From: an uncultured Methylomirabilota bacterium
GTDB lineage: Bacteria > Methylomirabilota > Methylomirabilia > Methylomirabilales > 2-02-FULL-66-22
Assembly (NCBI GenBank): GCA_963842855.1
Contig: CAWJHW010000003.1
Coordinates: forward strand, 696,616-760,615
Length of the DNA: 64,000 bases
Direction: 5' to 3'
In this document: in pieces, positions 2,962 through 62,322 of the stretch
How the letters are laid out: each line of letters starts with the position of its first letter
How positions within the stretch are numbered: position 1 is the first letter of the stretch
The notes under the pieces: model-generated
Database searches by the model: none
What the model saw: only the letters and a program-made list of their open reading frames with translations
Told to the model about the DNA's origin: nothing
Translations under genes and position numbers: made by a program

Positions 2962-3164
2962 GGCTGCACCTCCCGATCGCATGCGAAGTGTGAGTGCGAC
3001 CGCGCATTCCCGCGCCGTCAGCCATGGACGTTACCACCGGCCGGGAGATGGGGGCAAGGGATTTCTCCCGCGCGCGGCGGCGCAGCGATTCTGTGCGATT
3101 GACAGCCTCTGCCGCATCGGCTATAAGGCATTGTCTATCTCCCGTCGTCCCCGAGGAGACCCCG

Positions 3165-9139: not shown

Positions 9140-9145
9140 CCGCCC

Positions 9146-10270: not shown

Positions 10271-10365
10271 CGCGCGTTGGACTCCCTTAATCGCGTCCCC
10301 TCTTCAGCGCGCTTCACCCCCGTGACCGATGCGTCAGAGATGGCGCCGACCCTCAAACGCACACA

Positions 10366-10390
10366 GGCCGGAGGCGACTGCCTCCGGTCC
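10366..10390. terminator. GC-rich hairpin between convergent genes (CCGGAGGC-GACT-GCCTCCGG)
   Basis: Perfect 8-bp stem with a 4-nt loop at 10368-10387. No clear U-tract. Confidence 0.4.
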
Positions 10391-10418
10391 CGGTTGGCAA
10401 TCGATCCCGCCTTCTCGT

Positions 10419-11030: not shown

Positions 11031-11119
11031 CGACGCGGGCGCGCGTCCGGGGGGTGATGTCCCTTGGCTGCATGCCCGAAGGCAACGGAACGGAACCCGG
11101 GCAGCAGGAGGAGAAACCG

Positions 11120-11347
11120 ATGGCCGCTGCGTATGTCCTCATCGAGGCGGCACCCAAGAAGGCGCTGCGGGCCTGCGCCAAGATCGCAAAGATCTCCGGC
11201 GTGAAGTCGGCCCATCTGGTCACGGGGCCCTACGATATCATTGCCTTCGTCGAGGCGAAAGACCCTGGCGCCATCGGCAAGCTGGTGATGGCAAGAATCC
11301 AGGCGGTGCCCGGCGTGGGGAAGACCATCACCTGCGTCGTGGTCTAG
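11120..11347 (+). CDS. Stand-alone Lrp/AsnC ligand-binding (RAM) domain protein, ~75 aa
   Basis: MAAAYVLIEAAPKKALRACAKIAKISGVKSAHLVTGPYDIIAFVEAKDPGAIGKLVMARIQAVPGVGKTITCVVV. GGAGGAG lies 7 nt upstream of ATG 11120. Confidence 0.7.
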   Translation: MAAAYVLIEAAPKKALRACAKIAKISGVKSAHLVTGPYDIIAFVEAKDPGAIGKLVMARIQAVPGVGKTITCVVV

Positions 11348-13300: not shown

Positions 13301-14660
13301 ATGGCCAACTGGGACGTCCCCGCGCTGCTCAGCGAGGATCGGCAACATCTCCTCCATCCCCTGTGGCACCCTGCAGACCATGCGGAACCGCACGTCTGGG
13401 TCCGGGGCCAGGGGGCCGTCCTGACCGATGCCTCCGGGCGCGAGTTCCTCGACGGCCTGTCCTGCCTCTGGAACGTGAACGTCGGCCACGGTCGCCGCGA
13501 GCTGGCCGAGGCGGCCGCCCTGCAGATGGAATCTCTCGCCTTCGCGACCAACTATGCCGGGTCCGCCAATGTCCCGGCCATCCAACTGGCGCGCCGACTG
13601 ACCGAGATCGCCTATCCGAACCTCAGCGCCGTATTCTTCACCAGCGGGGGCGCGGAGTCCAACGAGAGTGCCTTCAAGACGGCGCGCTTTTATTGGAAGG
13701 CCAAGGGCCGCCCGGAGAAGGTGAAGGTCATCGCCCGGGAGTTCGGCTATCACGGCGTGACGCTGGCGGCCATGAGCGCCACCGGCGTCGCCGGCTACGC
13801 CAAGATGTTCGAGCCCCGCGTGCCCAACTTCGTCCACACGGCGACTCCCTACGCCTATCGCCTCGCCGGTGTGAAGCCCGGGGAGACCGTGGGGCAGGCC
13901 GCCGCCCGGATGCTGGAGGAGACCGTCCTCCGCGAGGGCCCCGACACGGTGGCGGCCTTCATCGCGGAGCCTGTGCAGGGCGCGGGCGGGATCATCGTCC
14001 CGCCGGACGATTACTTCCCCCGGGTGCGGGAGATCTGCGCCAAGCACGACGTGCTCTTCATCGCCGACGAGGTCATTACCGGCTTCGGCCGTACCGGCCG
14101 GTGGTTCGCCCTAGAGCGCTGGGGGGTGCAGCCCGACATCCTTGCCTTCGCCAAGGGGATCACCAGCGGCTACCTCCCCCTCGGGGGCATCATGGTCTCC
14201 GAGCCCATCCGCGAGGCGATGCTGTCGGTCCCCTATGCCGACCGCTGGATGCACGCCTACACCTACTCGGGACACCCGACCTGCTGCGCCGTGGCCTTGC
14301 GGAACCTGGAGATCCTAGAGAAGGAGGGGCTGGTGGGAACGGGCGGAGAAGATGGGCCAGCGCCTGCTGGACGGGGCGCGGAGCCTGCTCGACCTCCCGG
14401 CCGTCGGCGAGGTTCGCGGACTCGGATTGATGGTCGCCGTGGAACTCGTGGCGGACCGTGCCACCAAGGCGGCCTTCGATCCCGCCAAGAACGTCATCGG
14501 CCGGGTGCGGAAAGAGTTGGAGGCGCGTGGGCTCTTCACGCGGGTCGTGCGCGACATCATCCTGCTGGCGCCGCCCCTGGTCATCACCGAGGCCCAGGTG
14601 GATCGGATCGTGCAGATCCTGCGCGAGGGCATCCGTGCGGTGCTCCCCGACCGCGCGTAA
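13301..14660 (+). pseudogene. Class-III (omega) aminotransferase, one apparent +1 frameshift near 14336
   Basis: FTSGGAESNESAFK, FIADEVITGFGRTGRWFA and AFAKGITSGYLPLGG (PLP Lys). After ...LEILEKEGLV the frame must shift (extra G in gtgggaacg) to continue ERAEKMGQRLLDGARSLLDLPAVGEVRGLGLMVAVELV...ITEAQVDRIVQILREGI (ORF 14352..14660). Confidence 0.85.
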
Positions 14661-14679
14661 AATCAACAGCCCGCCGGTA

Positions 14680-14718
14680 CCAACGGTGCAACCGTTGGTG
14701 CCAACGGCAGCGCGTTGG
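14680..14718 (+). terminator. Two consecutive GC-rich hairpins built from CCAACGG/CCGTTGG words, directly after the aminotransferase stop
   Basis: CCAACGGT-GCA-ACCGTTGG (14680-14698) and CCAACG-GCAGCG-CGTTGG (14701-14718). No U-tract. Confidence 0.45.
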
Positions 14719-14741
14719 TGCGCCATGATCGCCAACATTAC

Positions 14742-15509: not shown

Positions 15510-16868
15510 TCAGTACGAGTTGATCATCTCCTCGACGCGGGGGTCGGTGGGCTTGAAGGGGTCCTTACACAGGATGGTGCGCTGGTAGCGGTCGTTGAGT
15601 TTGAGGTAGGACCAGCCCACGTCGTAGGACTTGTTCCGCTCGTTGGCGAACTTGATGAAGTCGGAGCGGATCTTGGCCCGCGTGGTCTGGGGGGACGTCA
15701 GCGTGGCCTCGTCGATCTCCTCGTCGGTGAACAGCCGCTCCACGTGCCCCTGCCGGCAGAGGGCGTTGTACAGGCCCCGGTCCCGGCGGATGTCGTGGTA
15801 CTGCAGGTCCAGCATGCTGATGCGCTGGTCGTCGAAGCCGATGCCCTTCCTCCCCATGTAGGAGGCGATGAGCTCCTTCTTGATGACCCAGTCCAGCTCC
15901 CGGGCGCAGGCCAGGGGGTCCTCGCTCAACCGGTCCAGGACGGCCTGCCACCGCTCTAAAAGGTCGCTCACCTGGGGGGAGAGCTCGGCCGTGGCGTAGT
16001 ACTCCAGGGCCAGCTCCAGGTACTCCCGCTGCAGCTCGATGGCGGAGAACTCCTTCCCCCGCTTCAGGCGGACCTTGCGCCGGCAGGTGGTGTCGTGGGA
16101 GATCTCCTTGATGGCCCGCACCGGGTCCTCCAGCCCGAGGTCCTTCCGGATGACGCCGTCCTCCACCATGGCCAGCACGATGGCCGTGGTCCCCACCTTG
16201 AGGTAGGTCGTCACCTCGGACATGTTGGAGTCCCCGACGATGACGTGGAGCCGCCGGTACTTCTCCTCGTCGGCGTGGGGCTCGTCGCGGGTGTTGATGA
16301 TACCCCGGGAGCTGGTGGTGGCCCCCGAGATCTCCTGGTAGATGTGCTGGGCCCGCTGCGAGATGTAGTAGTGGTTCCCCAGCCGCGTCTTCAGGACCTT
16401 GCCGGCCCCGGCGAAGATCTGGCGGGTGACGAAGAAGGGGATGAGCTGCTCCGCCAGCTTGTGGAAGTTGACCCCTCGCTCCACCAGGTAGTTCTCGTGG
16501 CAACCGTAGGTGTTGCCTACCGAGTCCGTGTTGTTCTTGAAGATGAAGATGTCGCAGTCGATCCCGTTCTCGTGGAGCTTCCGCTCCGCGGTGAGCAGGA
16601 GCTCCTCGATGATCCGCTCCCCGGCCTTGTCGTGGATGGTGAGGTCCAGGGCGTTGTCGCACTCGGGGGTGGCGTACTCGGGGTGGCAACCGGTGTCCTG
16701 GTACAGGCGGGCCCCGTTCCTGAGGAAATCGTTGGTGCCGCGCTGGCGGGAGACGACCTTCTCGAAGAGATAGCCGAGGGCGCTCTCCACCGAGAGGTTC
16801 ACGCGCCCGCCGGCCGAGGATGAGATCAGGCCGTATTCGTTCTCGAGGCCGAAGATGCGCCGCTGCAT
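15510..16868 (-). CDS. pafA: Pup--protein ligase PafA
   Basis: MQRRIFGLENEYGLISS..., GARLYQDTGCHPEYATPEC, YGCHENYLV and INTRDEPHADEEKYRRLHVIVGDSNMSEVTTYLKVG. 452 aa, intact, last gene of the proteasome cluster. Confidence 0.9.
   Translation of the reverse strand: MQRRIFGLENEYGLISSSAGGRVNLSVESALGYLFEKVVSRQRGTNDFLRNGARLYQDTGCHPEYATPECDNALDLTIHDKAGERIIEELLLTAERKLHENGIDCDIFIFKNNTDSVGNTYGCHENYLVERGVNFHKLAEQLIPFFVTRQIFAGAGKVLKTRLGNHYYISQRAQHIYQEISGATTSSRGIINTRDEPHADEEKYRRLHVIVGDSNMSEVTTYLKVGTTAIVLAMVEDGVIRKDLGLEDPVRAIKEISHDTTCRRKVRLKRGKEFSAIELQREYLELALEYYATAELSPQVSDLLERWQAVLDRLSEDPLACARELDWVIKKELIASYMGRKGIGFDDQRISMLDLQYHDIRRDRGLYNALCRQGHVERLFTDEEIDEATLTSPQTTRAKIRSDFIKFANERNKSYDVGWSYLKLNDRYQRTILCKDPFKPTDPRVEEMINSY
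15792..16301 (-). repeat. 510-bp segment of pafA nearly identical to 18738..19248 inside dop
   Basis: Base-by-base hand comparison finds only one substitution (cagcCcgagg vs cagGccgagg) and one 1-nt indel (gtccccgac vs gtcgcccgac). Confidence 0.9.
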
Positions 16869-16889
16869 GGCGGCCGGGACCGGCCGAGA

Positions 16890-17591
16890 TCAGGCGGCCC
16901 CCTCCCCCTCCTTCTCCATCAGCTCCCGGAGCTCGGCCAGGGGGATGCGGCGGAATTTCCGCCCCACCCGCTCCCGCTCCAGGACTGCGACCTCCATGTT
17001 GACCGCCTTGACCTTCTGGCTGGCGGCCGCCTCCAGGCCGCGCCCGGCCAGCCGCAACGCTTCTTCCAGGCTGAGGCTGTCCCGGTACTTGTCCCGCAGG
17101 AACAGCTTCAATTCCTCGGCCTGCCCGCCGATGGTGGCGTAGCCCTTCTCGTCGGCGATGCTCCCGTCGAAGGTGATGCGATACAGCTCGTTCCCGGCCG
17201 TCCCCTCACCCACCTCCAGGACCAGGATCTCCACCTCCAGCGGCTTGATCTCCATGCTGAAGATGTTCCCGATCGCCTGGGAGTAGGCATTCGCCAGCGA
17301 CTTGGCCGTGACGTCCTCGCGGCCGTAGGCGTAGCCTTTGAGGTCGGCGTACCGGATCCCTTCCTTCCGCAGCCGCTCGAACTCGCTGTACTTGCCGGCC
17401 CCCGCGAAGGCGATCCGGTCGTAGATCTCCGAGATCTTGTTCAGGGCGGCGCTGGGATTCTCGGCCAGGATCAGGACGCCGTCCCGGTATTCCAGCGCGA
17501 TGATGGACCGCCCCTTGGCGATGCCCTTGCGGGCGTACTCCGCCTTGTCCTGCATCATCTGCTCGGGAGAGACGTAGTAGGGAAGCGGCAT
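16890..17591 (-). CDS. prcA: 20S proteasome alpha subunit
   Basis: MPLPYYVSPEQMMQDKAEYARKGIAKGRSIIALEYRDGVLILAENPS...YDRIAFAGAGKYSEFE. Confidence 0.9.
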   Translation of the reverse strand: MPLPYYVSPEQMMQDKAEYARKGIAKGRSIIALEYRDGVLILAENPSAALNKISEIYDRIAFAGAGKYSEFERLRKEGIRYADLKGYAYGREDVTAKSLANAYSQAIGNIFSMEIKPLEVEILVLEVGEGTAGNELYRITFDGSIADEKGYATIGGQAEELKLFLRDKYRDSLSLEEALRLAGRGLEAAASQKVKAVNMEVAVLERERVGRKFRRIPLAELRELMEKEGEGAA

Positions 17592-17607
17592 CGCCCTCTC
17601 CTCGACC

Positions 17608-18405
17608 TCAGCCGGCCCGGCGCGCGTTGGCGATCGCCTCGCACAACGAGGCGACGCGGTCGTCGGGAACGTCCTGGATCCCGGCCCGCGTCACCAGCTT
17701 GACGCTGGGAAAGATCCTCCGGACGAAATCCGGCCCGCCGGTCCCGGTGTCCTCATCGGCGGCGTCGTACAGCGCCTCCACCGCCAGGTGGATCGCGTCG
17801 GCCTCGGGCATGGCCGGCCGGTACAACTTCTTCATGGTGGCGCGGGCGTCCTTCCCGCCGGAGCCGATAGCGTAATATTCCGCCTCGTCGTAGCGGCCAC
17901 CGGCCAGGTCGTACTTGTATATCCGCCCCTCGTCCCGCCGGAGATCGTAGCCGACGAAAATCGGGATCACCACCAGCCCCTGGATCGCCAGCGGCAGATT
18001 GGCCCGAACCATCTGGGCCAGCTTGTTGGCCTTCCCCTCCAGGCTTAGGACCATCCCCTCGAGCTTCTCGTAATGGGCCAGCTCCGTCTGGAAGAGCCGG
18101 GCCATCTCGAGGCACGGGCCCGCCGCCCCGGCGATGGCGATGGCCGAGTGGTCATCGGCCGCGTACACCTTCTCGATCCGCCGCGAGGCGACCTGGTACC
18201 CCTCGGTGGCCTGCCGGTCGCCGGCGACGACCACCCCCTCCTGGCAGCGGAGCGCCAGCACGGTGGTGCCGATGGGGACCGGCAACACCGTCTCGCGCGG
18301 CTCGGGCCCCTCGGCGGCGAACTGGGGTAGGTGCGCCGGCTCCCGCTGCCGCAGCAGGTCGAAGAAGCTGGATCCGGCATCGGACTGGCTGAAGGACAGA
18401 TTCAC
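17608..18405 (-). CDS. prcB: 20S proteasome beta subunit (with propeptide)
   Basis: GTG 18405 gives VNLSFSQSDAGSSFFDLL... Processing site ...VPIG|TTVLALRCQEGVVVAGDRQAT, then ...YAIGSGGKDA. AGGAGG lies upstream and overlaps the dop stop. The track merges this with dop as a 766-aa ORF. Confidence 0.9.
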   Translation of the reverse strand: MNLSFSQSDAGSSFFDLLRQREPAHLPQFAAEGPEPRETVLPVPIGTTVLALRCQEGVVVAGDRQATEGYQVASRRIEKVYAADDHSAIAIAGAAGPCLEMARLFQTELAHYEKLEGMVLSLEGKANKLAQMVRANLPLAIQGLVVIPIFVGYDLRRDEGRIYKYDLAGGRYDEAEYYAIGSGGKDARATMKKLYRPAMPEADAIHLAVEALYDAADEDTGTGGPDFVRRIFPSVKLVTRAGIQDVPDDRVASLCEAIANARRAG

Positions 18406-18419
18406 GGGCCGCGCACCTC

Positions 18420-19908
18420 CTAGCCTGCCAGCCGCTCCAAGAGGTCGGCCACGCTGTCCGATCGCTCCAGGATCTCCCCCACGAGCTTCCGAGTGCCCCG
18501 GGCGGGCTCGGCCATGGGAATCTTCTTCACCGTGGCCTCGCCCGTGTCCAGGAGGATCGAACTCCAGCTGGCCCCGTAGATGTGATCGGGGAATTTCTTG
18601 AGACAGGTCCCGCGAAAGTAGGCGCGCGTGTCCGCGGGCGGGCTGCCCATCGCCTCCCGGATTTCGGCGTCGGTCAGGATCCGCTCCACGTAGCCCTCGC
18701 GCTCCAGGCGGTAGTAGAGCCCCTTGTCCGCCCGCAGGTCGTGGTACTGCAGGTCCAGCATGCTGATGCGCTGGTCGTCGAAGCCGATGCCCTTCCTCCC
18801 CATGTAGGAGGCGATGAGCTCCTTCTTGATGACCCAGTCCAGCTCCCGGGCGCAGGCCAGGGGGTCCTCGCTCAACCGGTCCAGGACGGCCTGCCACCGC
18901 TCTAAAAGGTCGCTCACCTGGGGGGAGAGCTCGGCCGTGGCGTAGTACTCCAGGGCCAGCTCCAGGTACTCCCGCTGCAGCTCGATGGCGGAGAACTCCT
19001 TCCCCCGCTTCAGGCGGACCTTGCGCCGGCAGGTGGTGTCGTGGGAGATCTCCTTGATGGCCCGCACCGGGTCCTCCAGGCCGAGGTCCTTCCGGATGAC
19101 GCCGTCCTCCACCATGGCCAGCACGATGGCCGTGGTCCCCACCTTGAGGTAGGTCGTCACCTCGGACATGTTGGAGTCGCCCGACGATGACGTGGAGCCG
19201 CCGGTACTTCTCCTCGTCGGCGTGGGGCTCGTCGCGGGTGTTGATGATCGGCCGCTTGGCCATGGTGTCCAGGCCGATCAGGGTCTCGAAGAAATCGGCC
19301 CGCTGGGAGATCTGGTAGTCGCAGGGATCCGTCCCGTTCTCCGCCCCCACCTTGCCGGCGCCGCAGAAGATGATCCGCGAGACCAGAAACGGGGTCAGGC
19401 CCTCCACCAGCTGCTCGAAGGGGAGCCGGCGGGCGACCAGGTAGTTCTCGTGGTAGCCGTAGCTGTTCCCCTTGCCGTCCGTGTTGTTCTTGTAGACGAC
19501 CAGCTGCTGGGGGGGCGGGAGCTTCCGGTTGGCCGCCTCGCGGCACCCGTCGAAGATCCGCTCCCCCGCCTTCTCGAAGAGCACCAGGTCGCGGGCGTTA
19601 GTGGTCTCGGGCGTGGAGTACTCGGGGTGGGCGCCATCCACGTACAGGCGACCGCCGTTCGGCAGCACCTTGTTGATGGCGCGGTTGTCCTGCTGGCTGG
19701 GCCGCTCCCGTTCGCCGCTGACCTCGAATCCCCGGGCGTCCAGCAGCGGATTCTCGCCCGCGTAGTCCCACATGGCCCTGAGGGGCTCGCCCATGGGCAG
19801 CGCGTTGATGAGGAAGATGGAGCTGCCGACGGGATCGAAGCCGGAGGTGTCCCGGGCCGTGATTCCGACCTCCGTCTCGCTCCCCATGATCTTCTCGATG
19901 GCCATCAA
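18420..19908 (-). pseudogene. dop: Pup deamidase/depupylase Dop, one apparent 1-nt insertion near 19178
   Basis: N-terminus MMAIEKIMGSETEVGI.., Dop-specific insertion ...ARGFEVSGERERPSQQDNRAINKVLPNGG.., [31 protein letters not shown]. The frame then breaks. The continuation [11 protein letters not shown]...LDLQYHDLRADKGLYYRLEREGYVERILTDAEI...ERLAG* is ORF 18420..19169. Confidence 0.85.
18738..19248 (-). repeat. 511-bp segment of dop nearly identical to 15792..16301 inside pafA (direct repeat, 2.9 kb apart)
   Basis: See the partner entry. The dop frameshift (extra C in gggCgactcc) lies inside this segment. Confidence 0.9.
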
Positions 19909-20048
19909 TGTGTCCTTTTACGGCGACGCCCCGCTCCCGGGGAGGCGCCCCGACCGCTTTCGCCTCTGTGCCTGCTGTCACACCTGGCAAACGCCACGGC
20001 CCGGGGACGGGCCGCGGATGCCGACGAATCGATGAGGCGGGCGGGTCC

Positions 20049-21838
20049 TCAGAGGTAATGACCCGTGCTGATGGTCTCGACCTTGCGTGGCTTTTTGCCT
20101 TCCCGGTCGAACACCGGCCGGACGTGCACGATGCGCTCGGTCCGGCGGGCGGCGATCTTGGCCCAGTCGTCGGGGTTGGTGGTGTTGGGGAGGTCCTCGT
20201 TCTCCCGGAACTCGGTCTTCACCGCCTCCACCAGGTCGGCCGCGGTGAGGCCCTTCACCCCGGTGGCGATCATGCGCTTGACGGCGGCCTTCTTGGCCCG
20301 GGTGCAGACGCTCTCGATGAGGGCCCCGCTGACGAAGTCCTTGAAGTAGAGCGTCTCCTTCTCCCCGGAGGCGTAGGTGACCTCCAGGAAGCGGTGGGCC
20401 TCGTCGGCGGCGAACATCTCGGCCGTGGCGGCCTCGAGGGCCCCCTCGGGGGTCTCGCCGGGGCGCCAGGGGAGCTCGGCCGTGCAGTACTTCCCGAAGA
20501 TCTCCCGGGCGGCCTCCCGGGCGGGCCGGTCGATCCGGATCTTCACGTCGAAGCGGCCGGGGCGCAGCACGGCCGGGTCGATCAAGTCCTGCCGGTTGCT
20601 CGCCCCGATGACGATGACGTTGCGTGAGCCCCTCCACCCCGTCCAGCTCGGCCAAGAACTGGGGGACGATGGTCGACTCCACGTCCGAGGAGATGCCGCT
20701 GCCCCGGGTGCGGAAGAGGGAGTCCATCTCGTCGAAGAAGATGACCACGGGGGCCCCGGCGCTGGCCTTCTCCTTGGCCCGGGCGAAGATCTCCCGGAGC
20801 TTCCGCTCCGTCTCCCCCACGTACTTGTTCAGGAGCTCGGGGCCCTTCACGTTCAGGAAGTAGGCGGGGCTCGGCGTCCCGGTCTGTCTCGGAGAGCTGC
20901 TGGGCCAACGCGTTGGCCACGGCCTTGGCGATGAGGGTCTTCCCGCAGCCCGGGGGGCCGTAGAGCAGGACCCCCTTGGGGGGCGTGAGCTTGTGGGCGG
21001 CGAAGTGCTCGGCGTAGAGCACGGGGAGCTCGATGGCGTCCCGGATCTGCTCGATCTGGGGCCCGAGGCCCCCCACGTCGGCGTAGGTGATGTTGGGGAC
21101 CTCCTCCAGGACCAGCTCCTCCACCTCGGCCTTGGGGAGCCGCTCCAGGACGACCCCGGCCCGGGCGTCCAGGCGGAGGAGGTCGCCCACCTGGAGGCCC
21201 GTGTCCTGGAGGGCCGCGCTGAGCTCCACCACCCGCTCCTCGTCGGCGCGTAGGGCCACCACCACCCGGGCGGCATCCAGCCGGTCCTTCAGGCGGACCA
21301 CCTCCCCCTGGGGGTCGGCCGTGCCGGCCGCCACGACGTTCAAGGCCTCGTTCAGGACCACCTCCTGGCCCCGGGAGAGCTGCGCGGCCTCCACCCCGGG
21401 GGCCACGGTCACCTTGAGCTTCCGGCCGGCTGTCCAGACGTCCACGGTCCCCTCGGGGTGGGTGGTGAGCACCGTCCCGTAGCTATTCGGGGGGGCGGCC
21501 AGCTTGTCCACCTCGGCCCGCAGGGCGGCGAGCTGCTCCTTGGCCTGTTGGAGGGCAGCCACCAGGCGCTCGTTCTGCTGGTGGGCGTGCTCGAGTTGTT
21601 CCCGCGACTGGCTCAACTTGGTCCGGAGGAACTCGAATTCCTTCGGCGTCTGCTCCAGGCGCCGGCGCAGGTGGAACATCTCCTCTTCCAGCGCCTTGAC
21701 CTGCGCCTGCAGACCATCGATGTCCGTTTCGTATTGGTCGATCTGCCGCTGAGACAAAGCGTCGCCCTTGGGCAGTTGCCCCGAGAGCTTCCGCATCGTC
21801 TTGCGCAGAGAGTTCAGCTTGGTTTCGGAATCACCCAT
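20049..21838 (-). pseudogene. arc: Proteasome-associated AAA ATPase ARC/Mpa, two apparent frameshifts (about 20622 and 20875-20900)
   Basis: Coiled-coil N-terminus MGDSETKLNSLRK...; Walker [16 protein letters not shown]. Frame 2 gives [50 protein letters not shown]...[10 protein letters not shown]. Frame 3 gives [33 protein letters not shown]... and ends ...ISTGHYL* (compare the Mpa GQYL docking tail). Confidence 0.85.
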
Positions 21839-22171
21839 CCTCGTCCGGCCTCCGCCAGCGACACAACCACATCCCGCCCCAGGCACGCGCTGGTGCGGCA
21901 AGTCGCGGCATCACGTCGAGCGCTGTCACGATGATGCAAGGTATCTTAAACGGCTTTCGGGGGGTGTCAAGTCTTTTTGTCCCTCGGAAATCGCGCCTCG
22001 GGACGTTCGCATCGCCCTCGGCGCGTCGCGTTTCCCGGGAGGCCGCCGCGGAGATCCTCCGGCCGCGGCCGGTCCACAAACGAGAATGGCTGGGGTGCCC
22101 CCAGCCATCCCAACGCGCGGGTCGTCGTTTCGGTTCCCCCGGCACGCGGGGGATCAGTGGCTGCACGTCCC

Positions 22172-30847: not shown

Positions 30848-30943
30848 GGGGGCGCACGTCCATACCCATTGGAGGCCACAAGCTCCTGCCCTTCGCCCCG
30901 GGCGCGGCGCGATCCGCCACTCCTGACCCAGAGGAGCGGTACG

Positions 30944-31147
30944 ATGCAGATCACCAAAGACATGACGATCGAGGAGGTCGTCCAGCAGTTCCCGGAGACA
31001 GTCCAGGTCTTCAGCCGGTACGGCGTGGGTTGCGTGGGATGCTCGGCGGCCCAGTACGACAACGTCGAGCGGGGCGTGGTCCTTCACGGCCTGGATACCG
31101 ACCAGCTGGTGCAGGAGTTGAACGCCTGCATCACCGCCCATTCGTAG
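30944..31147 (+). CDS. DUF1858 / hybrid-cluster-associated redox disulfide-type small protein
   Basis: MQITKDMTIEEVVQQFPETVQVFSRYGVGCVGCSAAQYDNVERGVVLHGLD... Confidence 0.65.
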   Translation: MQITKDMTIEEVVQQFPETVQVFSRYGVGCVGCSAAQYDNVERGVVLHGLDTDQLVQELNACITAHS

Positions 31148-39163: not shown

Positions 39164-39597
39164 GCGGGGTCTCCTTTCGTCCTCAAGGTAAGTGCGGCAA
39201 TCCGGAAAACACGTGCGCGCCGCCGGAATCCAAGAGAGCCGGACGGCAGGACATATCCTACCCCAATCCCCCGGCGGTATCCATCAACTTGCGGCAATTG
39301 TCTCCAGTTGCAGCCAGGTCGTCCCGGGCTCGGCAACCCCCTGCTTGTCAACCGGGGCCGTGGTCGCTGCGAACAAGTTGCGCAATGCATAGCGCGAATC
39401 GAACAACCTGTCGTAAACTGCCTCCGGCGCGCGGGGCGAACTCGCCAGCTTAAGGGTGCGCTGGGCGAACACCCCCGGCCGGCGCTTGGACACGCCGGGG
39501 AGTTGCGGGCCGTATCGCTCGGGAGTGATGGAGGACCGTCGAGAGGAGGGATCCACCTTGGCAGCGCACAAACGGCTGGGTCCCCCTTTACACAGAT

Positions 39598-40388
39598 GTG
39601 ACGGAGCTGATGACAGGAGGGATGCCGATGCCTACTGTACCAGGTGTTGCCATCGTAACCGGCGCATCCCGCGGGATCGGCCGGGCCATCGCTGCCGCCC
39701 TGGCCGCGTCGGGCCATCGCATCGTCCTGAGTTACCGGGATCGCGAGGACCAGGCGGCCGGCCTCGTGGAGAGGATCCGCGCGGCCGGCGGCGAGGCCGT
39801 CGCTGTCCGGGCGGATGTGGGCCAGCCCACGGAGGCGGACGCGCTGGTGCGCACCGCGCTCGACACCTTCGGCCGGGTTGACGTCCTGGTGAACAATGCG
39901 GGCGTCCACCTCCCAGGGGTGCCCTTGGCCGCTGTGCGGTGGGAGGAGTGGGAGCGGCTCCTCCGGGTGAACCTGAGCGGTCCCCTCCGGCTCATCCAGG
40001 CGGTGATTCCCCAGATGCGGGAGCGCCGCCGCGGCCACATCGTCAACATCTCCTCCAACGTGAGCCACGACTCCCGGCCGGCAACGGTCCCTACACCGTG
40101 TCTAAGGTGGGCCTGGAAGTATTGACGCGAATTCTCGCCAAGGAAGAGGGGCCGCATGGGATCCGCGTGAACGCCATCGCCCCCGGACCCATCCGGACGG
40201 ACATGCTCGAGGAGTCCCTGAAAGTAATGGGCCCGGAGCGAGCCGAAGCCTTCATCCGCTCGGTCCCGCTGGGACGGACGGGCCAGCCGGAGGAGATTGC
40301 CAGCGTCGTCGTGTTCCTGGTCTCCGACGCGGCGAGCTTCATCACGGGCCAGATCATCTACGTGAACGGCGGCGGCCCCGGGGGATAG
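39598..40388 (+). pseudogene. Short-chain dehydrogenase/reductase (FabG-like), one apparent frameshift near 40062-40075
   Basis: VAIVTGASRGIGRAIA, VLVNNAGV and ...GHIVNISSNVS in ORF 39598..40125. Then ...PAGNGPYTVSKVGLEVLTRILAKE..RVNAIAPGPIRTDM..ITGQIIYVNGG* in ORF 39939..40388. Confidence 0.8.
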
Positions 40389-55474: not shown

Positions 55475-56578
55475 TCACGCGCCCTGCAGGTGGTGGATCT
55501 TCCGGGGATCCAGGCCAAGGAAGACCCGCCCCTCCAAAATCCCCCTTTCCCGGGGATCGGGAACGTCCACGACGAACTCGTATGGGACAGCCTCCGGTTG
55601 GAGCGTGACATCAACCCAGTAGCGAACCCATTGCCCGACGAAGGTGTGCGTCCGGACCACACCTTCCAGGACGTTCGACCCCGGATCGGCCGGCGGCATG
55701 CTGGCGATCTGGATCGCCTCCGGCCGGATATTCAGGACCGCCTCCTCCCCAGGCCGGAGGCCTTGCCCCGGCGACTCCACCCGGATCACCCTGCCTCCGA
55801 ACTCCAGCGTGAACCACTGTGCCTCGGCTTCACGGATCCGTCCCCGGAGGAAATTAGCCGTCCCGACGAAATCGGCCACGAAGACGCTCTGGGGGGTGTA
55901 GTAGATCTCCCAGGGCGTCCCGTACTGGACCACTTCCCCCTGGTGCATCACGGCGATCCGGTCGGAGATGGCTAACGCCTCCTCCTGGTCGTGGGTGACG
56001 TAGACGGTGGTGATGCCGACCCGCCGCTGGATCTGGCGCAGCTCGGCCCGGATCGTGACGCGCAGCTTGGCATCCAGGTTGGAGAGCGGCTCGTCCAGCA
56101 GCAGGATCTCCGGCTCCATGACCAGCGCCCGCGCCAGGGCCACGCGCTGCTGCTGGCCGCCGCTGATCATCCCCGGCATCCGGTCCCCCAGGCCGGCCAG
56201 TCCCATGTCGTCCAGGACCCGCTCCACTCTCTTGCGAAGTTCTTCTCCTCGCACGCCGCCGATCTTCAGCCCATAGGCCACGTTCTCGAACACCGTCATG
56301 TGCGGGAACAGGGCGTAGTCCTGGAACACCATGGCGGCATGCCGGTGATGCGATGGGACGTCGTTCATCCGGCGCTCGCCGAAGAAGATGTCGCCTTGAT
56401 CGGCCTCGTAGAAGCCGGCCAGCGTCCGGAGGATCGTCGTCTTGCCGCAGCCGCTGGGGCCGAGCAGCGTCGTGAAGCTGCCCCGGATGATCTCCAGCGA
56501 GACGTCCCGCACCGCCGTGACCGCTCCGAACCGCTTGGTCAGGTGCCGGATGGCGATATGCACCAATGCGTCGTTCAT
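55475..56578 (-). CDS. ABC transporter ATP-binding protein (PotA/FbpC-like)
   Basis: Walker A GPSGCGKTT, signature ISGGQQQRVALARAL, Walker B ILLLDEPLS. ATGA overlap with the permease gene. Confidence 0.88.
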   Translation of the reverse strand: MNDALVHIAIRHLTKRFGAVTAVRDVSLEIIRGSFTTLLGPSGCGKTTILRTLAGFYEADQGDIFFGERRMNDVPSHHRHAAMVFQDYALFPHMTVFENVAYGLKIGGVRGEELRKRVERVLDDMGLAGLGDRMPGMISGGQQQRVALARALVMEPEILLLDEPLSNLDAKLRVTIRAELRQIQRRVGITTVYVTHDQEEALAISDRIAVMHQGEVVQYGTPWEIYYTPQSVFVADFVGTANFLRGRIREAEAQWFTLEFGGRVIRVESPGQGLRPGEEAVLNIRPEAIQIASMPPADPGSNVLEGVVRTHTFVGQWVRYWVDVTLQPEAVPYEFVVDVPDPRERGILEGRVFLGLDPRKIHHLQGA

Positions 56579-58200
56579 ATCCGGAAAAGCTCCACGTTTC
56601 GGCCGAACAGCAGCCGGGAGAGCGCCAGGACGATGCACGTCAGGATCAAGAGCGCCGTGGTCAGCGCCGCGGCTGCGCCCCGATAGCCATCATTGGCCAG
56701 GTTCAGGATGGTGAACGTGGCCACCGCGTTCCGGTTCGTCACCAGGAAAACGATCACGGAGAGCGTGGTGACGGCCCGGATGAAGGACACCACGAACGCC
56801 GAGACCAGCGAGGACTTGAGAAGAGGGAGCTCGACATCCCAGAAGGTCTTCAGGGATCCCGCGCCCAGGTTGGAGGCCGCCTCGCCGAGGGAGGGGGCAA
56901 TCTGCTTGAGCCGCCCGATCCCCGTCTGGTACCCCATGGGGATATTCCAGAACATCAGGCTAAGGATGATGATCGCCGCCGTCCCGTACAGGTCCAGCGG
57001 CGGCGCGTTGAAGGCCAGGGAGTAGCCGATGCCGAAGACGACGCCGGGGATGGCCGCCGGCAGGATGGCCACGAAATCCAGGAGGGCCCGGCCGGGAAAC
57101 GTTTTTCGCGACACCAGGTAGGACGCCAGGATGGCCAGGAGCGAGCTGACGGTCGCGGCGACCGCGGCGAAGACCAGGCTGTTGATCAGGGCGCGGCCAT
57201 TGGCCAGGACATCCTGCCAGTGCTTCAGCGTCGGCGTGTAGTCGAAGCCCCAGCCCCGGCTGAATGCGCCCGCCAGAAGGCCGAGGAAGACACACAGGAT
57301 CAGGAGCGAGACCAGCGTGCAGAAGGCGAAGAGGGGCCAGCGGACGTACCAGGGGGTCGGGGGCGGGGTGAGAAGGACCACCTTGCCCGTGATGGTGATG
57401 TACTGCCGGCGCCCGACCCAGTACCGCTGGGCGAGGAACAGACCGAAGGCCGGGATCAGCATGACGGAGGAGAGGACCGCCGCCCCGGTTACGTCTCCCC
57501 AGCCCGAAATGCGGGCCCAGGCCTCGGTCGGTAGGACCGTGTAGTGGCCGGCGATCATGACCGGATTGCCAAAGTCAGCCAGGACGTAGATCGCCACCAG
57601 GAGCGCCGCCCCGGCCACCCCCGGGCGGGCCAGGGGGAGGATCACGGTCCGGAAGAGTCGCCAGCCGCTGGCGCCGAGATTCCGGGCCGCATATTCCAGC
57701 GAGGGAGCGATGGACTGCAGCACCCCCTCCATCACCAGGGCAGCGATGGGGAAGAAGGCGATGGTCTGCGAGAGCCACAGGCCGTGCCACCCGATGATGT
57801 TGTACCGCGTCCCCAGCAGGGTGTAGGTGACGAGACCATTGCGCCCGAACATCAGGATGTAGCTGAAGGCGATCATGAAGGGGGGAGAGAAGAGGGGGAG
57901 GATGGCGATGCCCCGGAACAGGCCCTTCCACGGCACGGTGGTTCGGGTGAAGGTGTACGCGAACAGGAATCCAACCGCTGTCGCGCTGGACGTGGAGAGG
58001 ATCACGATGACGCACGTGTGCAACGTTGCGGTGACGTACCGCTCGTTGCCTGGCAGCGCGAGGAAATCTCGCAGGCCGGGATAGAAGAGAACCCGCAGGA
58101 CCGGATAGATGACAAACAGACCCAGGGCGGCGAAGATGGTGAGGATGGTAGCGAGGAGCAAGGGCTCCCGCAGCAGCCGTTTCATCGGCCGATCCCGCAC
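56575..58200 (-). CDS. ABC transporter permease, two fused permease domains (FbpB-like)
   Basis: 541 aa, about 12 TM, two EAA-like loops (...EYAARNLGASGWRLFRTVILPL... and ...GEAASNLGAGSLKTFWDVELPL...). Confidence 0.85.
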   Translation of the reverse strand: MRDRPMKRLLREPLLLATILTIFAALGLFVIYPVLRVLFYPGLRDFLALPGNERYVTATLHTCVIVILSTSSATAVGFLFAYTFTRTTVPWKGLFRGIAILPLFSPPFMIAFSYILMFGRNGLVTYTLLGTRYNIIGWHGLWLSQTIAFFPIAALVMEGVLQSIAPSLEYAARNLGASGWRLFRTVILPLARPGVAGAALLVAIYVLADFGNPVMIAGHYTVLPTEAWARISGWGDVTGAAVLSSVMLIPAFGLFLAQRYWVGRRQYITITGKVVLLTPPPTPWYVRWPLFAFCTLVSLLILCVFLGLLAGAFSRGWGFDYTPTLKHWQDVLANGRALINSLVFAAVAATVSSLLAILASYLVSRKTFPGRALLDFVAILPAAIPGVVFGIGYSLAFNAPPLDLYGTAAIIILSLMFWNIPMGYQTGIGRLKQIAPSLGEAASNLGAGSLKTFWDVELPLLKSSLVSAFVVSFIRAVTTLSVIVFLVTNRNAVATFTILNLANDGYRGAAAALTTALLILTCIVLALSRLLFGRNVELFRI

Positions 58201-58261
58201 GAGCGAAAGGCCCGGGGATTACCCCCGGGCCCTTCGCGCAGACGATTCTCCATCGGTCGAA

Positions 58262-59281
58262 CTATTTGCCAGTGATCTGGGTCCAGCGCTCCAACCAGGC
58301 GTGCAGGTTGGCGTTCACCTTGGCCTGATCGTAGTTCACGAACTGGAGATTCTCGAAGGGCGGCACGCCCTCGGGCATCGTGACGCCGCCGCGCACCGGG
58401 TAGCGCAGGCCATTCCGGGCGTTGATCTCCATGGGCTTGGGCGTCAGGATGAAGTCCACGAACTTCTGCGCCGCGGAAAGATGCGGCGCCCCCTTGATGA
58501 TGGAGACGGCGCCGATCTCGTACCCGTCGTCCTTGGGGAAGATGACGGCCACCGGCAGGTTCTCGGCCTTCTTCTGCCGGATCAGGTCATGGCCCCAGGC
58601 GATGCCGGCGATGGCCTGTCCCTGCGCGACCAGGGGGATCGACCCATTCGCGCCGGGCGTATACTGGGTCACATTCTTGTGCAGGTCCGCGATGTACTGG
58701 AACCCCTTCTCCTCGCTCCCCAGGCGGAAGATCTGGGTCGCCACGAAGATCACCGCGCCTCCCGTGGTGGCGGGGTTCGCCCCGATGATCTCTCCCTTGT
58801 AGGCCGGGTTCAAAAGGTCATCCCAGGTGGCAGGCAGCTTGAGACCCTTGGGCGCCAGCTCGGCCTGGAACCGCTTCTCGTTCACCGGGATGGCCAGGGC
58901 GCCCAGGTACCAGCCGCTCCAGAAGCCATTGGGATCCATGTACTTCGGTTCGATCTTGGCCCGCGCCACCTCCGGCGAGACGTACTTGGCCAGGAAACCA
59001 CTCTGGGCCACACCGTCGTGGATGGAGGTGTTGCCCCCGATGAAGATGTCCGCCCGGGGGTTCGACGCTTCGGTCTGGATCCGGGAGGCGATCGTCCCCG
59101 CTTGCTCGATCTGCAGGGCAATCTCCGCGGTCAGGCCTGTGGCCTGCTTGAAGGCATCGGCGATCTCCTCGATGGTTTTCTTGTCGAGCGCGGCATAGAT
59201 CGTGAGGTCAGCGGCCGATGCAACCCCCGCGCCCAGGATCGTCACCGCCAAGGCGAGCCCCAGTACCAGCATGCGTCTCAT
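58262..59281 (-). CDS. ABC transporter periplasmic substrate-binding protein (family 1; iron(III)/polyamine/thiamine type)
   Basis: Signal MRRMLVLGLALAVTILGAGVASAADL. AGGAGG upstream of ATG 59281; the track ORF extends spuriously to 59752. Confidence 0.8.
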   Translation of the reverse strand: MRRMLVLGLALAVTILGAGVASAADLTIYAALDKKTIEEIADAFKQATGLTAEIALQIEQAGTIASRIQTEASNPRADIFIGGNTSIHDGVAQSGFLAKYVSPEVARAKIEPKYMDPNGFWSGWYLGALAIPVNEKRFQAELAPKGLKLPATWDDLLNPAYKGEIIGANPATTGGAVIFVATQIFRLGSEEKGFQYIADLHKNVTQYTPGANGSIPLVAQGQAIAGIAWGHDLIRQKKAENLPVAVIFPKDDGYEIGAVSIIKGAPHLSAAQKFVDFILTPKPMEINARNGLRYPVRGGVTMPEGVPPFENLQFVNYDQAKVNANLHAWLERWTQITGK

Positions 59282-59523
59282 GGCGTTCCTCCTGCCCTCT
59301 CCCGTCCAAAGGGTCCCGGATGACTGTCGCACGCCCACAGCAAGATTCTGACCGTTGCACACCCCTCTTCCACAGCGCCCAACTCCCTCGCCCACGGCCT
59401 CGCCGTACACGGCGCGGACCGCGAGACCCCTGGTAACGCTAACGCCAATTAGTTTTCTCCAATCCGTCATCGCTGTCAAGCAGAAATCGCCCCGCAAATC
59501 CGCCTCAGGCGCGGCTGGCGGTT

Positions 59524-59558
59524 CTCGGCTCGTGGCTCTCAGCTCTAGGCTCTGCCGC
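59524..59558. repeat. CTCGGCN-family heptamer array (ctcggct cgtggct ctcagct ctaggct ctgccgc)
   Basis: Overlaps the stop and last codons of the amidase gene. Shares GCTCGTGGCTCTC with 40689-40723. Confidence 0.6.
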
Positions 59559-60978
59559 TCACCACCGGCGGGATGCACTCCTCCCATGGGGCTGCGGCCT
59601 CGAACGCCGCCGCCGCGGTGAGGACCGCCGCCTCTTGCCGCCGCCGACCGACGATCTGCAGTCCGACCGGCAGGCCTCCTTGCGTGAAACCGCAGGGAAC
59701 GGAAATCGCCGGGAGGCCCGTCACACTGACGCCGTACGTGAGGAAAAACCACTGCGTGTAATTGTCCAGCGGCTTCCCGTTGATCTCGGTGGGGTACGGC
59801 TGCTCCACCGGAAATGGCGGCACCGCCACCGTCGGCAGGATCAAGAGGTCGCGTGTCTCCATGAATGTCCGCACCCGGTGCCAGAGCGCCGTGCGCAGCT
59901 TTTCTCCTCGAGCAATCTCCTGGGGCGTGAGCCGCAGGCCCTGCTCGATGTTCCAGACCAGCCCCTTCTGCATCTCACCTTTCCATTGGGCAAGCTTGTC
60001 GGCGTGCAGCGCCACCATGGAAAGCCCGCGGGTCGCCAGGACAATCTCGTTCACCTCGCTGAAGTCCGGGCAGGCGGCCTCGACCTTGGCGCCGAGCGAC
60101 CTGAAGACCCTTATGGCATCCTCCGCGACGTTGGCCACCTGCGCATCCACCGGGATCAGGCCGTTCAGATCCGGCGTCCACGCCACCCGCCAGCCTTTCA
60201 CCGACGGATTCCTGACGGCCTTCAGGAACTCCCGGGTATCTACGGCGTACGAGAGTGGCGCCATATCGTCGGGACCCGCCATTACCGAAAGCATCAACGC
60301 CGTGTCCACGACTGTCCTCGCCATGGGACCGACGACGGACAGGGAGTCCCAGGCCAACTCCTTCGGGTAATCCGGCACAAGCCCGGGCGTCGTTCGGAAG
60401 CCGACGACGCCGCAGAAGGCAGCGGGAATTCGCAACGAACCGCCAAGATCGGAGCCCTGGGCGATCGGTCCCATCCCCGTCGCCAGGGCGACGGCCGCGC
60501 CGCCGCTCGACCCGCCGCAGGTGAGGGCCAAGTTCCAGGGATTGCGGGTGGCACCGAAGACCGCGTTGAACGTGTTGGCGCCCGCGCCGAACTCGGGCGT
60601 GTTGGTTTTGCCCACCACGATGGCTCCGGCTGCCTTCAGGCGCTCCACGATCAGCGCGTCCTCCTCCGGGACATGGTGCTCGAAGATCTTCGAGCCCCAG
60701 GTCGTCCGGATGCCCTTGGTGGGCTCGAGGTCCTTGATGGAGACCGGCACACCGTGAAGCGGCGGGAGCTTCGCCCCCCGCCTGAGCGCCCTGGTCGCCG
60801 CCCGCGCCGCCTTGAGCGCAGATTCCCGCGCGATCGTCACGTAGGCGTTGACCTGGGGATTAACCTGATCAACCCGCGCCAGGACGGCCTGCGTCACCTC
60901 CAAGGGCGACACCTTCCGCGCCCGGTACAGCTTTACCAGTTCGGTTGCCGGCGTGAAGCACAGATCTCGCTCAGGCAT
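59545..60978 (-). CDS. Amidase-signature family amidase (GatA-like)
   Basis: GGSSGGAAVALATGMGPIAQGSDLGGSLRIPAAFCGVVGF. GGAGGG lies 5 nt upstream of ATG 60978. Confidence 0.85.
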   Translation of the reverse strand: MPERDLCFTPATELVKLYRARKVSPLEVTQAVLARVDQVNPQVNAYVTIARESALKAARAATRALRRGAKLPPLHGVPVSIKDLEPTKGIRTTWGSKIFEHHVPEEDALIVERLKAAGAIVVGKTNTPEFGAGANTFNAVFGATRNPWNLALTCGGSSGGAAVALATGMGPIAQGSDLGGSLRIPAAFCGVVGFRTTPGLVPDYPKELAWDSLSVVGPMARTVVDTALMLSVMAGPDDMAPLSYAVDTREFLKAVRNPSVKGWRVAWTPDLNGLIPVDAQVANVAEDAIRVFRSLGAKVEAACPDFSEVNEIVLATRGLSMVALHADKLAQWKGEMQKGLVWNIEQGLRLTPQEIARGEKLRTALWHRVRTFMETRDLLILPTVAVPPFPVEQPYPTEINGKPLDNYTQWFFLTYGVSVTGLPAISVPCGFTQGGLPVGLQIVGRRRQEAAVLTAAAAFEAAAPWEECIPPVVSGRA

Positions 60979-61303
60979 TGAAACCCTCCACGAGGTGTTG
61001 GGTCGCGGCATGCTATCACAGATTCCGAACGATTGTCACACACTGGCCGGCTTCGCGCCGCAGGCCGAACGGCGGGATGACGTATGCAGAGGAATTGCTT
61101 GACACCGGGCCTAGTGGGTCAGGGGACTAGAGAAGAGGAGGCAGTGCATCCCTTGCCGAGGGGACGTTGCTTCCTTGTTCTCTTTATCGAAAAATACATA
61201 CGATGCGACGTCCCCTGTCCAGGCGAGGCCGAGGCGCCCCTTGGCAAGAACGAAATCAATCGGTTAACTTCCAGGGGCCCTCCGGTACCTTTCTAGCTGC
61301 CGG

Positions 61304-62044
61304 CTAGGCTGCCCCGATCCAGGAGGCACGGGCCGGACGAAAGGCCGCGGCAGCCTTGAGAAATGCAAGGAAGAGAGGATGCGACGCCCCCGGATGGGAC
61401 GAAAGCTGAGGCAAGAACAGCGTGGCCACAAAGAACGGGTGACCCCGGAGTTCCACAATCCGCACCTCCCCGTTTTCATCAAGACCCGTCACCTGAAGGC
61501 CGCCGTTCTCAACTTGTTCCCGGTATTCCGGGTTCAAGCCGAAGTTACAGCGGAACTCTTCGGCAGATTCTTGGCTGCCATAGCCTCTGGCGGTGATCGT
61601 TCCCGGGAGAAGTCGCACGCTACGCCTCTGCCCTGCAACTGCGCACTCCAGGCGGCTGATCAGAAGAAGTAATGCCTCTGGCGATGTTTCCCCGTGCTCC
61701 GCGTCGGGGATTCCAAGGACGTTTCGCGCATACTCTACCAGAGTATGTTGAAACCCGCCTCACGTTGCAAAGAACGGCCGTCCGTGCTGCCTGGCGAAAG
61801 TGATACCGGCGAGGGCGCCAGTCATGCTCCGGTAGGGGCTCCCCGGTGAACACAAAACCCCGTGGAACGGACTGAGCCGTACCGGGGCCGAGTCTTGATC
61901 GAGTTCCGGTGTCGGCACCCACTGCACGTTCAACGTCAAGCCCAGCGTCGCGGCTGCATGGTGGAGCGCGGCATTCGTCGAAACGTGGGAGACAAATTGA
62001 GGATCGAAGTCGCCGATCACACCGATACCCACCGACTGTTCCAT
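61304..62044 (-). CDS. CTP-synthase-C-terminal-domain-like (class-I amidotransferase fold) protein with in-frame TGA at the nucleophile position: candidate selenoprotein
   Basis: One continuous frame: MEQSVGIGVIGDFDPQF...FARQHGRPFFAT[TGA 61762-61760]GGFQHTLVEYARNVLGIPDAEHGE...VRLLPGTITARGYG...VELRGHPFFVATLFLPQLSSHPGASHPLFLAFLKAAA. GGAGG lies 6 nt before ATG 62044. The track shows two ORFs (61760..62080, 61304..61618). Confidence 0.65.
61721..61754 (-). promoter_or_regulatory. SECIS-like stem-loop 5 nt downstream of the in-frame UGA
   Basis: mRNA reads UGA-GGCGG-GUUUC-AA-CAUACUC-[UGGUA]-GAGUAUG-CGC-GAAAC: a perfect 7-bp upper stem, a 5-bp lower stem and a G-containing 5-nt apical loop. Confidence 0.55.
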
Positions 62045-62322
62045 TGCAAGCCTCCGTCGTTTTCTCTCGAAGCAGCCCAACTGCGCTTACATGGTTTCCG
62101 CATAACACCCCTGGGTTCCTCGGGGCGGAATCGGGAGAGACCCGGCGTGCGGTTCCGGTGAGCCGGCTGACTCAAAAGCCCGAGGGCCTATTCTGTTCGG
62201 TAGGAGATCTGACGGGACGGAGCTCCCGGGGAATCGAAATAAGGCACCGGGAGGATCGAGCGGGAGCTTAGCCAAGGGGCTGACACGTGTCAACGGTAAA
62301 TGGGCCGTCGAGCAAAAGCGTC

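Follow-up and report, generated by a model that had tools for sequence, protein, structure and literature searches.

Background

Two recent papers bear directly on the protein family considered here. In the deep-Sep study, a 'glutamine amidotransferase (COG0504, PyrG)' from Desulfosediminicola ganghwensis was reported as a new predicted selenoprotein with both TGA- and Cys-bearing homologues (Xiao & Zhang 2025, PMC12013277), and a subsequent review lists the family under NF004836 with the motif GxUxG (Zhang et al. 2026, PMC13188914). The NCBI model NF004836 already contains the word '(seleno)protein' in its name. Neither the function of the family nor its missing catalytic triad is discussed in PMC12013277 or PMC13188914; in the literature, the family name or accession was found only in the 2026 review, and the BSepDB text does not mention it. 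Here we describe a gene of this family in a 64,000-nucleotide (nt) stretch of DNA from an uncultured Methylomirabilota bacterium (contig CAWJHW010000003.1, positions 696,616 to 760,615), which as a whole is called the window below. The gene adds a member to a family already known from computational prediction of selenoproteins. It very probably encodes a selenocysteine (Sec)-containing, stand-alone protein with the fold of the CTP synthase glutaminase domain.

Other members of the host phylum have been associated with selenium before. A Methylomirabilota metagenome-assembled genome with 63 predicted selenoprotein genes is mentioned in the literature (Deng et al. 2026, as cited in PMC13188914), and Methylomirabilota are among the phyla with Sec-type group 4 hydrogenases (PMC13582414). 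An earlier note on this DNA, made from the sequence alone, had pointed to an NCBI '(seleno)protein' model and had tentatively placed the gene in a 'little-studied selenoprotein family'. The model does exist, as NF004836.1, and the description is right, except that the family had already been published as a predicted selenoprotein in the two papers above (PMC12013277, PMC13188914). What is added here is a contrast between the Sec and Cys forms of the family in their selenocysteine insertion sequence (SECIS), the finding that the lower stem of this hairpin is probably incidental, the family-wide loss of the catalytic His and Glu and of a substrate-binding Arg, and the lack of a conserved gene neighbourhood.

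Results and discussion

A single reading frame interrupted by one TGA

The gene had been read earlier as one minus-strand frame with a sole TGA at 61762-61760. Retranslation of 62080..61304 (-) gave exactly these coordinates: the gene, 62044..61304 (-), is a single frame with one internal stop. Around this stop the translation reads ...FARQHGRPFFAT, stop, GGFQHTLVEYARNVLG..., with the residues RPFFAT directly upstream of it. The features of the gene are as follows.

61304..62044, minus strand: predicted selenoprotein gene, complete, 246 aa, recognized by its single frame, its NF004836.1 and PF00117 matches and its family-invariant residues
62051..62055, minus strand: Shine-Dalgarno-like GGAGG, separated by a 6-nt spacer from the ATG
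62044-62042, minus strand: start ATG, read from the sequence
61760..61762, minus strand: in-frame UGA, the putative codon for Sec95, where the G-T-[C/U]-G-G-F-Q-H elbow has its nucleophile
61729..61747, minus strand: proposed SECIS core, an 8-bp helix (CAUACUCU/AGAGUAUG) closed by the apical loop GGU, which begins 20 nt past the UGA
61721..61754, minus strand: extended stem-loop with a lower GUUUC/GAAAC stem, fold energy -11.2 kcal/mol; the lower stem is probably incidental to coding
61304..61306, minus strand: true stop TAG, from the translation

The homologues begin 5-8 residues ahead of the IGVIGDF motif, in keeping with the ATG of the window gene. The nucleophile motif has the version ATUGGFQH in the window protein. 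Elsewhere in the window TGA is a normal stop. The pafA gene terminates at TGA after a full-length model match, and a reassigned genetic code is therefore excluded.

Membership in the NF004836 family

With Sec entered as Cys, the window protein matches the NCBIfam profile NF004836.1 from end to end (residues 6-232 on profile positions 2-227/228), at 310.2 bits against a curated cut-off of 260 (E = 6e-93). It also matches the Pfam GATase domain PF00117 (38.9 bits; gathering threshold 22.8). The CTP synthase models score below their thresholds (TIGR00337, 128 bits against 463; NF003792 for PyrG, 130 bits against 308) and are matched through their C-terminal half alone (profile positions 289-526). 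The window protein is not PyrG: unlike PyrG, it is a stand-alone protein of 246 aa without the N-terminal ATP/UTP synthetase domain, and its scores against the equivalog models fall below the cut-offs.

Nevertheless, its fold is that of the PyrG glutaminase domain. Compared with the PDB, a profile built from 112 family members matched CTP synthases and nothing else (E = 1e-45 to 1e-26), with E values of 1e-38 to 1e-45 for the entries 1S1M, 1VCO, 4ZDI and 2VKT. The AlphaFold model of a Cys homologue about 60% identical to the window protein (P0004; pLDDT 96) superposes on CTP synthase glutaminase domains with TM values of 0.85-0.91. The nucleophile stands at the same elbow in both, and they also have in common the Gln and Glu of the glutamine pocket and a C-terminal GHPLF-like motif. 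The profile alignment agrees with the claim, first made by eye, that the TGA falls on the nucleophile Cys of the CTP synthase glutaminase domain; the homologues have TGA or TGC/TGT at this position.

All 25 invariant columns of the 112-sequence family alignment are present in the window protein. There is in fact no difference of substance between this protein and the rest of NF004836: the G-T-U-G-G motif, the Sec position and the absence of the triad His and Glu are the same, and the SECIS sequence is the same as in 38 other TGA-bearing members. Only the host lineage, Methylomirabilota, is new. The family is large, with more than 5,600 matches in the protein database across many phyla. The best match is only 59% identical to the window protein, because gene callers split the TGA forms. 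Among the top 120 matches a single domain fusion was seen, a 412-aa protein from Acidimicrobiales (P0119) that is fused to GNAT acetyltransferase domains (PF13673, PF13508, PF00583) and could be a lead to function.

Cysteine or selenocysteine at the aligned codon

The codon aligned to the TGA was collected by two scans, one over GTDB with one genome per species, which returned 80 loci, and one over metagenomes, which returned 80 more loci, 79 of them scorable. Both used peptide patterns derived from Sec-type sequences and kept the matches most similar to the query, and their proportions are therefore biased towards TGA. With this bias, the codon is TGA in 40 of the 80 GTDB species and TGC or TGT in the other 40, so that every one of the 80 loci shows the Cys or Sec codon that the earlier note had proposed to look for in homologues. 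All 79 scorable metagenome loci, 8 close relatives included, have TGA. The hosts of the TGA forms belong to Desulfobacterota and other Deltaproteobacteria, Chloroflexota, Acidobacteriota, Actinomycetota and Clostridia.

In the 120 best proteins of the database the same column holds Cys in 112, Trp in 6, Leu in 1 and Arg in 1 (Cys/Sec in 113 of 121 when the query, with its own substituted Cys, is counted). The Trp-bearing proteins are the closest relatives of the window protein. In at least one of them (L162), the DNA has TGA at the site, and the 'W' comes from a gene caller that applied another genetic code. Two other loci deviate in their DNA, each on a single contig. L001 has TTA (Leu) at the site (1120-1122), one base from TGA, with the SECIS hairpin intact, and L163 (gene 3001-4011) has CGC (Arg) without the hairpin. 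In either case this could be an inactivating mutation or an error.

Outside the SECIS region, the sole amino-acid difference between the Sec and Cys forms is a Phe/Tyr swap at 164 and 168. As the two forms show hardly any other difference, they should share one function.

The SECIS hairpin

Starting at the UGA, 42 nt fold into GUUUC-AA-CAUACUCU-GGU-AGAGUAUG-CGC-GAAAC (61754-61721), where GGU is the apical loop. The hairpin drawn in the earlier note is reproduced by this fold at -11.2 kcal/mol (z = -1.8; 10 of 200 shuffles as stable). The apical 19-nt hairpin alone has -7.4 kcal/mol and z = -4.0, with none of 200 shuffles as stable, and a 76-nt fold is unremarkable (z = -1.05). The structure alone is suggestive, not decisive; it is the comparative evidence that puts the hairpin beyond chance.

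For this comparison, the 48 nt from TGA or TGY were examined column by column in 41 Sec forms and 40 Cys forms, the coding alignment being gap-free. In the apical helix (columns 16-23 with 27-34), 96.3% of the cells are paired in the Sec forms versus 56.3% in the Cys forms. At least 7 of the 8 helix pairs are present in 38 of 41 Sec forms versus 1 of 40 Cys forms (p = 2e-18 in a Fisher test that takes no account of relatedness). Of the 41 Sec forms, 21 have a GGU loop and 18 a GUU loop. Two helix pairs show compensatory changes, from U-A to C-G in four sequences and from A-U to G-C in two.

The coding sequence carries traces of the same structure. The otherwise conserved Tyr105 is replaced by Cys (UGU) or His (CAU) in the Sec forms L038, L039, L047, L019 and L049, about 30 nt past the TGA, exactly where these changes restore a pair of the SECIS helix. 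In those Sec forms it appears that the RNA structure dictates the amino-acid substitution. Similarly, residue 103 is Val or Leu in the Sec forms, where the codon GUA or UUA supplies loop bases, and Ile in the Cys forms.

The lower GUUUC/GAAAC stem does not behave in this way. It is paired in 71.7% of the cells in Sec forms versus 69.0% in Cys forms, and was rejected as a signal on account of this equal pairing. The lower stem is probably a side effect of Phe-Gln...Arg-Asn coding, with the signal confined to the apical 8-bp helix. Of the hairpin drawn earlier, therefore, the apical helix is specific to TGA forms and the lower stem is not.

Published constraints for a bacterial SECIS (bSECIS; PMC13188914) are an upper stem of 4-16 bp, an apical loop of 3-9 nt with a G in its first two positions, a distance of 16-37 nt from the UGA and a minimum free energy of at most -7.5 kcal/mol. 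With 8 bp, a 3-nt loop that begins with G, 20 nt and -11.2 kcal/mol, the window element lies within all four, and the bacterial SECIS geometry suggested previously is borne out. Like the canonical elements (the E. coli fdhF type and the bSECISearch consensus; PMC13188914), it is located directly past the UGA inside the open reading frame (ORF). Its loop can be read either as one of 3 nt or as a 5-nt U-GGU-A loop fitting the N1-G-[G|U]-N-N2 of the bSECISearch consensus. Its sequence, in contrast, is unrelated to that of the E. coli fdhF SECIS, and the SECIS of this family is unusually invariant in nucleotides across phyla. No Rfam family covering the window hairpin was found.

If the canonical bacterial mechanism applies, the UGA at 61762-61760 would be decoded as Sec and not as a stop. 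The complex SelB-GTP-Sec-tRNA(Sec) would bind the hairpin CAUACUCU-GGU-AGAGUAUG, located 13 nt past the UGA (12 intervening bases) inside the coding sequence. Sec95 would then be placed at the nucleophile elbow, which the alignment identifies as the site of the catalytic Cys in CTP synthase.

Two TGA forms from Gaiellaceae / Thermoleophilia (L055 and L070) are without the usual hairpin and have a different fold (CAGCACGUGCUCGUGGAGUACGCACG...). They are placed beside a Cys clade in the tree and may have gained Sec independently, with a SECIS of another kind.

The active site and its possible chemistry

Amide hydrolysis by the class I glutaminase fold needs the His-Glu pair, and the alternation of Sec and Cys is typical of catalytic, usually redox-active cysteines rather than of hydrolase nucleophiles. 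The active site was compared by profile alignment to the CTP synthases of the PDB and by counts of the family columns. The Cys-His-Glu triad of class I amidotransferases is not reproduced in the window protein, where the nucleophile is predicted as Sec, His is replaced by Leu211 and Glu by Gln213. Opposite the H-P-E of the triad every family member has V/L-P-Q (L211-P-Q213 in the window protein; Val in most members), and the contrast of 'QFHPE' with 'LFLPQ' drawn before was correct. Moreover, the HRHRYE of PyrG, with the Arg that binds the glutamine carboxylate, corresponds to YYCNFG in the family, in which the Arg is lost (N167) and an invariant Cys166 is gained. The oxyanion loop PGGFG of PyrG is PGSPY in the family. 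On the other hand, the glutamine-pocket residues Gln99 and Glu119 are kept and invariant. His100 and Cys134 are family-specific and invariant, and the family-specific His117 is nearly so (about 98%).

The family is most likely not an ammonia-releasing glutaminase, because the triad His and Glu and the carboxylate-holding Arg are lost family-wide. That the protein is not an ordinary glutaminase had been proposed for the window gene; the replacement of His and Glu extends to the whole family. Our best guess is that catalysis is centred on the Sec or Cys, which would be redox-active or act covalently, Cys166 or Cys134 probably being its partner. Such a redox or covalent-transfer role is suggested by the two circumstances mentioned at the start of this section, that is, the kind of cysteine at which Sec/Cys alternation is found and the need of a His-Glu pair for hydrolysis. 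The substrate may have an amino-acid-like head group, as the family retains two residues of the glutamine pocket, Gln99 and Glu119. Combining these points, we tentatively propose, as a possibility that we hold with rather low confidence, an uncharacterised type of enzyme in which the glutaminase-fold elbow is reused without His and Glu for selenol/thiol redox or transfer chemistry. Its partners would be Cys166/Cys134 and His100/His117, and its Sec form, together with a near-frozen SECIS, would have been spread across phyla by gene transfer.

Alternative explanations

With high confidence, the UGA of the window gene can be regarded as a recoding site in an NF004836 member, and the comparative evidence makes the predicted selenoprotein status well supported. 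If the TGA were instead a real stop, the gene would be a pseudogene that arose by a change from TGC to TGA, or it would be split into two polypeptides. The frameshift-like mpa, dop, aminotransferase and SDR genes do point to decay or assembly error nearby, and the TTA and CGC variants of the closest clade (L001, L163) indicate that the codon is able to mutate. However, TGA is kept in 40 species of several phyla and in 79 metagenome contigs, and the hairpin specific to TGA forms is maintained. The 151-codon frame after the TGA is open in all fully extracted TGA homologues (40 GTDB species and 7 close relatives), and the family-invariant residues that follow it are intact in the window protein (H100, E119, C134, E162, C166, R195, E198, P212 and H222). 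In comparison with L087 and L088, the two more divergent of the close relatives, the ratio of nonsynonymous to synonymous substitution rates (dN/dS) past the TGA is 0.17-0.19, which speaks for purifying selection. As to a split, a second polypeptide could start in frame no earlier than the GTG at 61618 and would lose the invariant GGFQH...E119...C134 block. A real stop is thus highly improbable. Practically negligible is the chance that the true codon is TGC or TGT and that TGA arose by an error of sequencing or assembly: the frame breaks elsewhere in the assembly, which might raise this suspicion, are indels rather than substitutions and none of them touches the selenoprotein gene, and a SECIS would have no reason to exist beside a Cys codon. 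Furthermore, the TGA recurs in all of eight contigs (L082-L088 and L090; 88-99% amino-acid identity) that come from other samples and were assembled independently, and their 48-nt downstream context is identical to that of the window. A recoding of UGA and hairpin to something other than Sec, either to Cys by a SelC*-type tRNA (tRNA-ReC) or to Trp or Cys by near-cognate read-through, is very unlikely. Such tRNAs, decoding UGA as Cys with a downstream SECIS, were noted in a 2026 paper, and Cys functions at the site in half of the sampled homologues; but the window contains no such tRNA (the sole tRNA found by ARAGORN is a tRNA-Gly), the SECIS fits the canonical SelB-type model and the lineage is reported as Sec-using.

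The remaining alternative accepts a genuine selenoprotein and concerns its reaction. The protein might still be an amidotransferase or hydrolase acting on glutamine or another amide through a selenoester intermediate, with the lost His-Glu pair offset either by the low pKa of Sec or by His117 or His100 as a relocated base; it might then work with the adjacent amidase and ATP-binding cassette (ABC) importer in supplying or removing ammonia. The class I glutaminase fold with its nucleophile elbow would agree with this, as would the invariant Gln99 and Glu119, which match the glutamine-pocket residues of CTP synthase, the approximately 98% conserved His117 two residues ahead of Glu119, and the presence of the amidase and importer downstream on the same strand. 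Yet the equivalents of the triad His and Glu and of the Arg are replaced in all members, including the Cys forms, which would not benefit from the lower pKa of a Sec. None of the 80 other species shares the amidase/ABC neighbourhood, an insertion of 2.4 kb separates the selenoprotein gene from the amidase even in one close relative, and the general tendency of Sec/Cys alternation to mark redox-active cysteines points in another direction. We consider an amidotransferase or hydrolase of this kind unlikely.

Several observations have to be set against a Sec-containing enzyme with the redox or transfer chemistry proposed above. By itself the hairpin is only modestly stabler than shuffled sequences, and dN/dS against the closest relatives is about 1-2, a figure behind which there are only 7-11 substitutions. 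Genes for selA, selB, selD and tRNA-Sec were not found in the 64-kb window (ARAGORN, Rfam and NCBIfam, 48 window ORFs), although the absence of sel genes from a 64-kb piece is uninformative. No second selenoprotein gene was detected when the window was scanned for in-frame TGA codons lying between stretches of coding-like composition. The literature support for the family is computational only, with no experimental selenium incorporation in the published accounts (PMC12013277, PMC13188914). As for the proposed chemistry, it is from the alignment with CTP synthase that Cys166, Cys134 and His117 would lie near Sec95. Finally, the gene neighbourhood gives no hint to this chemistry.

The scan for in-frame TGA returned, as other recoding candidates, only antisense frames and the prcA/pafA junction, which were rejected. 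Likewise, the TGA at 30845 was rejected as a recoding site, as it separates two ordinary genes. One of these, at 30848-31147 (+), encodes a small protein with a 'hybrid cluster protein-associated redox disulfide domain' (TIGR03980). It shares its frame with the preceding TGA-ended gene and has its own ATG, hence it is not a case of recoding.

Gene neighbourhood, composition and transfer

The genes next to the selenoprotein gene, and the frameshift-like genes of the window, are as follows.

61011..59545, minus strand: amidase, PRK07486 subfamily (above cut-off), downstream of the selenoprotein gene after a gap of 292 nt
59752..55475, minus strand: ABC importer (substrate-binding protein, permease, ATPase), after the amidase and followed by ilvD
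From about 62470, divergent: ilvB, on the other flank of the selenoprotein gene
17608-21901 (minus strand), 13301-14728 (plus strand) and 39529-40125 (plus strand): frameshift-like genes, with model matches in pieces or cut off

The amidase/ABC cluster (55475-61011, minus strand) is wedged between ilvD and ilvB. The importer resembles the 'putative 2-aminoethylphosphonate' transporters PhnS2/U2/T2, with scores below their cut-offs.

The earlier note had pointed to the amidase and the ABC importer as the context of the gene. They do lie downstream on the same strand, but the arrangement is conserved in close relatives only. It is common to L082, L083 and L086 (96-99% nucleotide identity). In L088 (about 93% nucleotide identity), about 2.4 kb (8740-11151) is inserted between the gene and the amidase at the place that corresponds to 61296-60981 of the window, so that even in this lineage the two genes do not form a constant pair. 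All-against-all clustering of the ORFs from the 80 species loci revealed no neighbour shared by more than 7 loci, and no Pfam family occurred in more than 4 of the flanking ORFs (126 scanned). Among the cultured species, the only shared neighbour is a LysR regulator in two Pseudomonas genomes. The link to the amidase and importer was thus rejected as a functional clue, there being no conserved neighbour across the 80 other species.

The selenoprotein gene has a GC content of 60.7% and a third-position GC of 0.66, versus 66.7% for the window and a third-position GC of 0.75-0.97 for its neighbours. In a rough neighbour-joining tree only about four switches between Sec and Cys are needed, and the Sec forms span several phyla. 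The low third-position GC and the few switches across several phyla would fit acquisition and spread of the gene by horizontal transfer.

The window also contains a complete Pup-proteasome cluster (15510-21901, minus strand) with pafA, prcA, prcB, dop and mpa. Its PafA has 95% identity with a Candidatus Methylomirabilis sp. protein, the next matches being from NC10/Methylomirabilota, and thereby assigns the window to that phylum. In this cluster, the proteasome ATPase gene (mpa/arc) matches its model piecewise in three frames (positions 3-251, 250-332 and 331-509), and dop in two (2-245 and 245-484). In the aminotransferase and SDR genes, the model match ends at about two-thirds. These frame breaks suggest an indel-prone assembly or gene decay.

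Conclusions

The window gene opens no long-standing question; the family is already in the literature as a predicted selenoprotein. Its recognition as a family member is of use for annotation, as gene callers split such genes in two or apply the wrong genetic code, of which the JGI products with 'W' at the site are an example. Family recognition restores the full-length protein and would add one selenoprotein to a selenium-rich phylum. If the proposed chemistry is true, this would be the first selenoenzyme on the glutaminase fold with a non-glutaminase reaction. A large family that has abandoned the catalytic triad but kept the nucleophile, often upgraded to Sec, is a reasonable target for biochemical characterisation.

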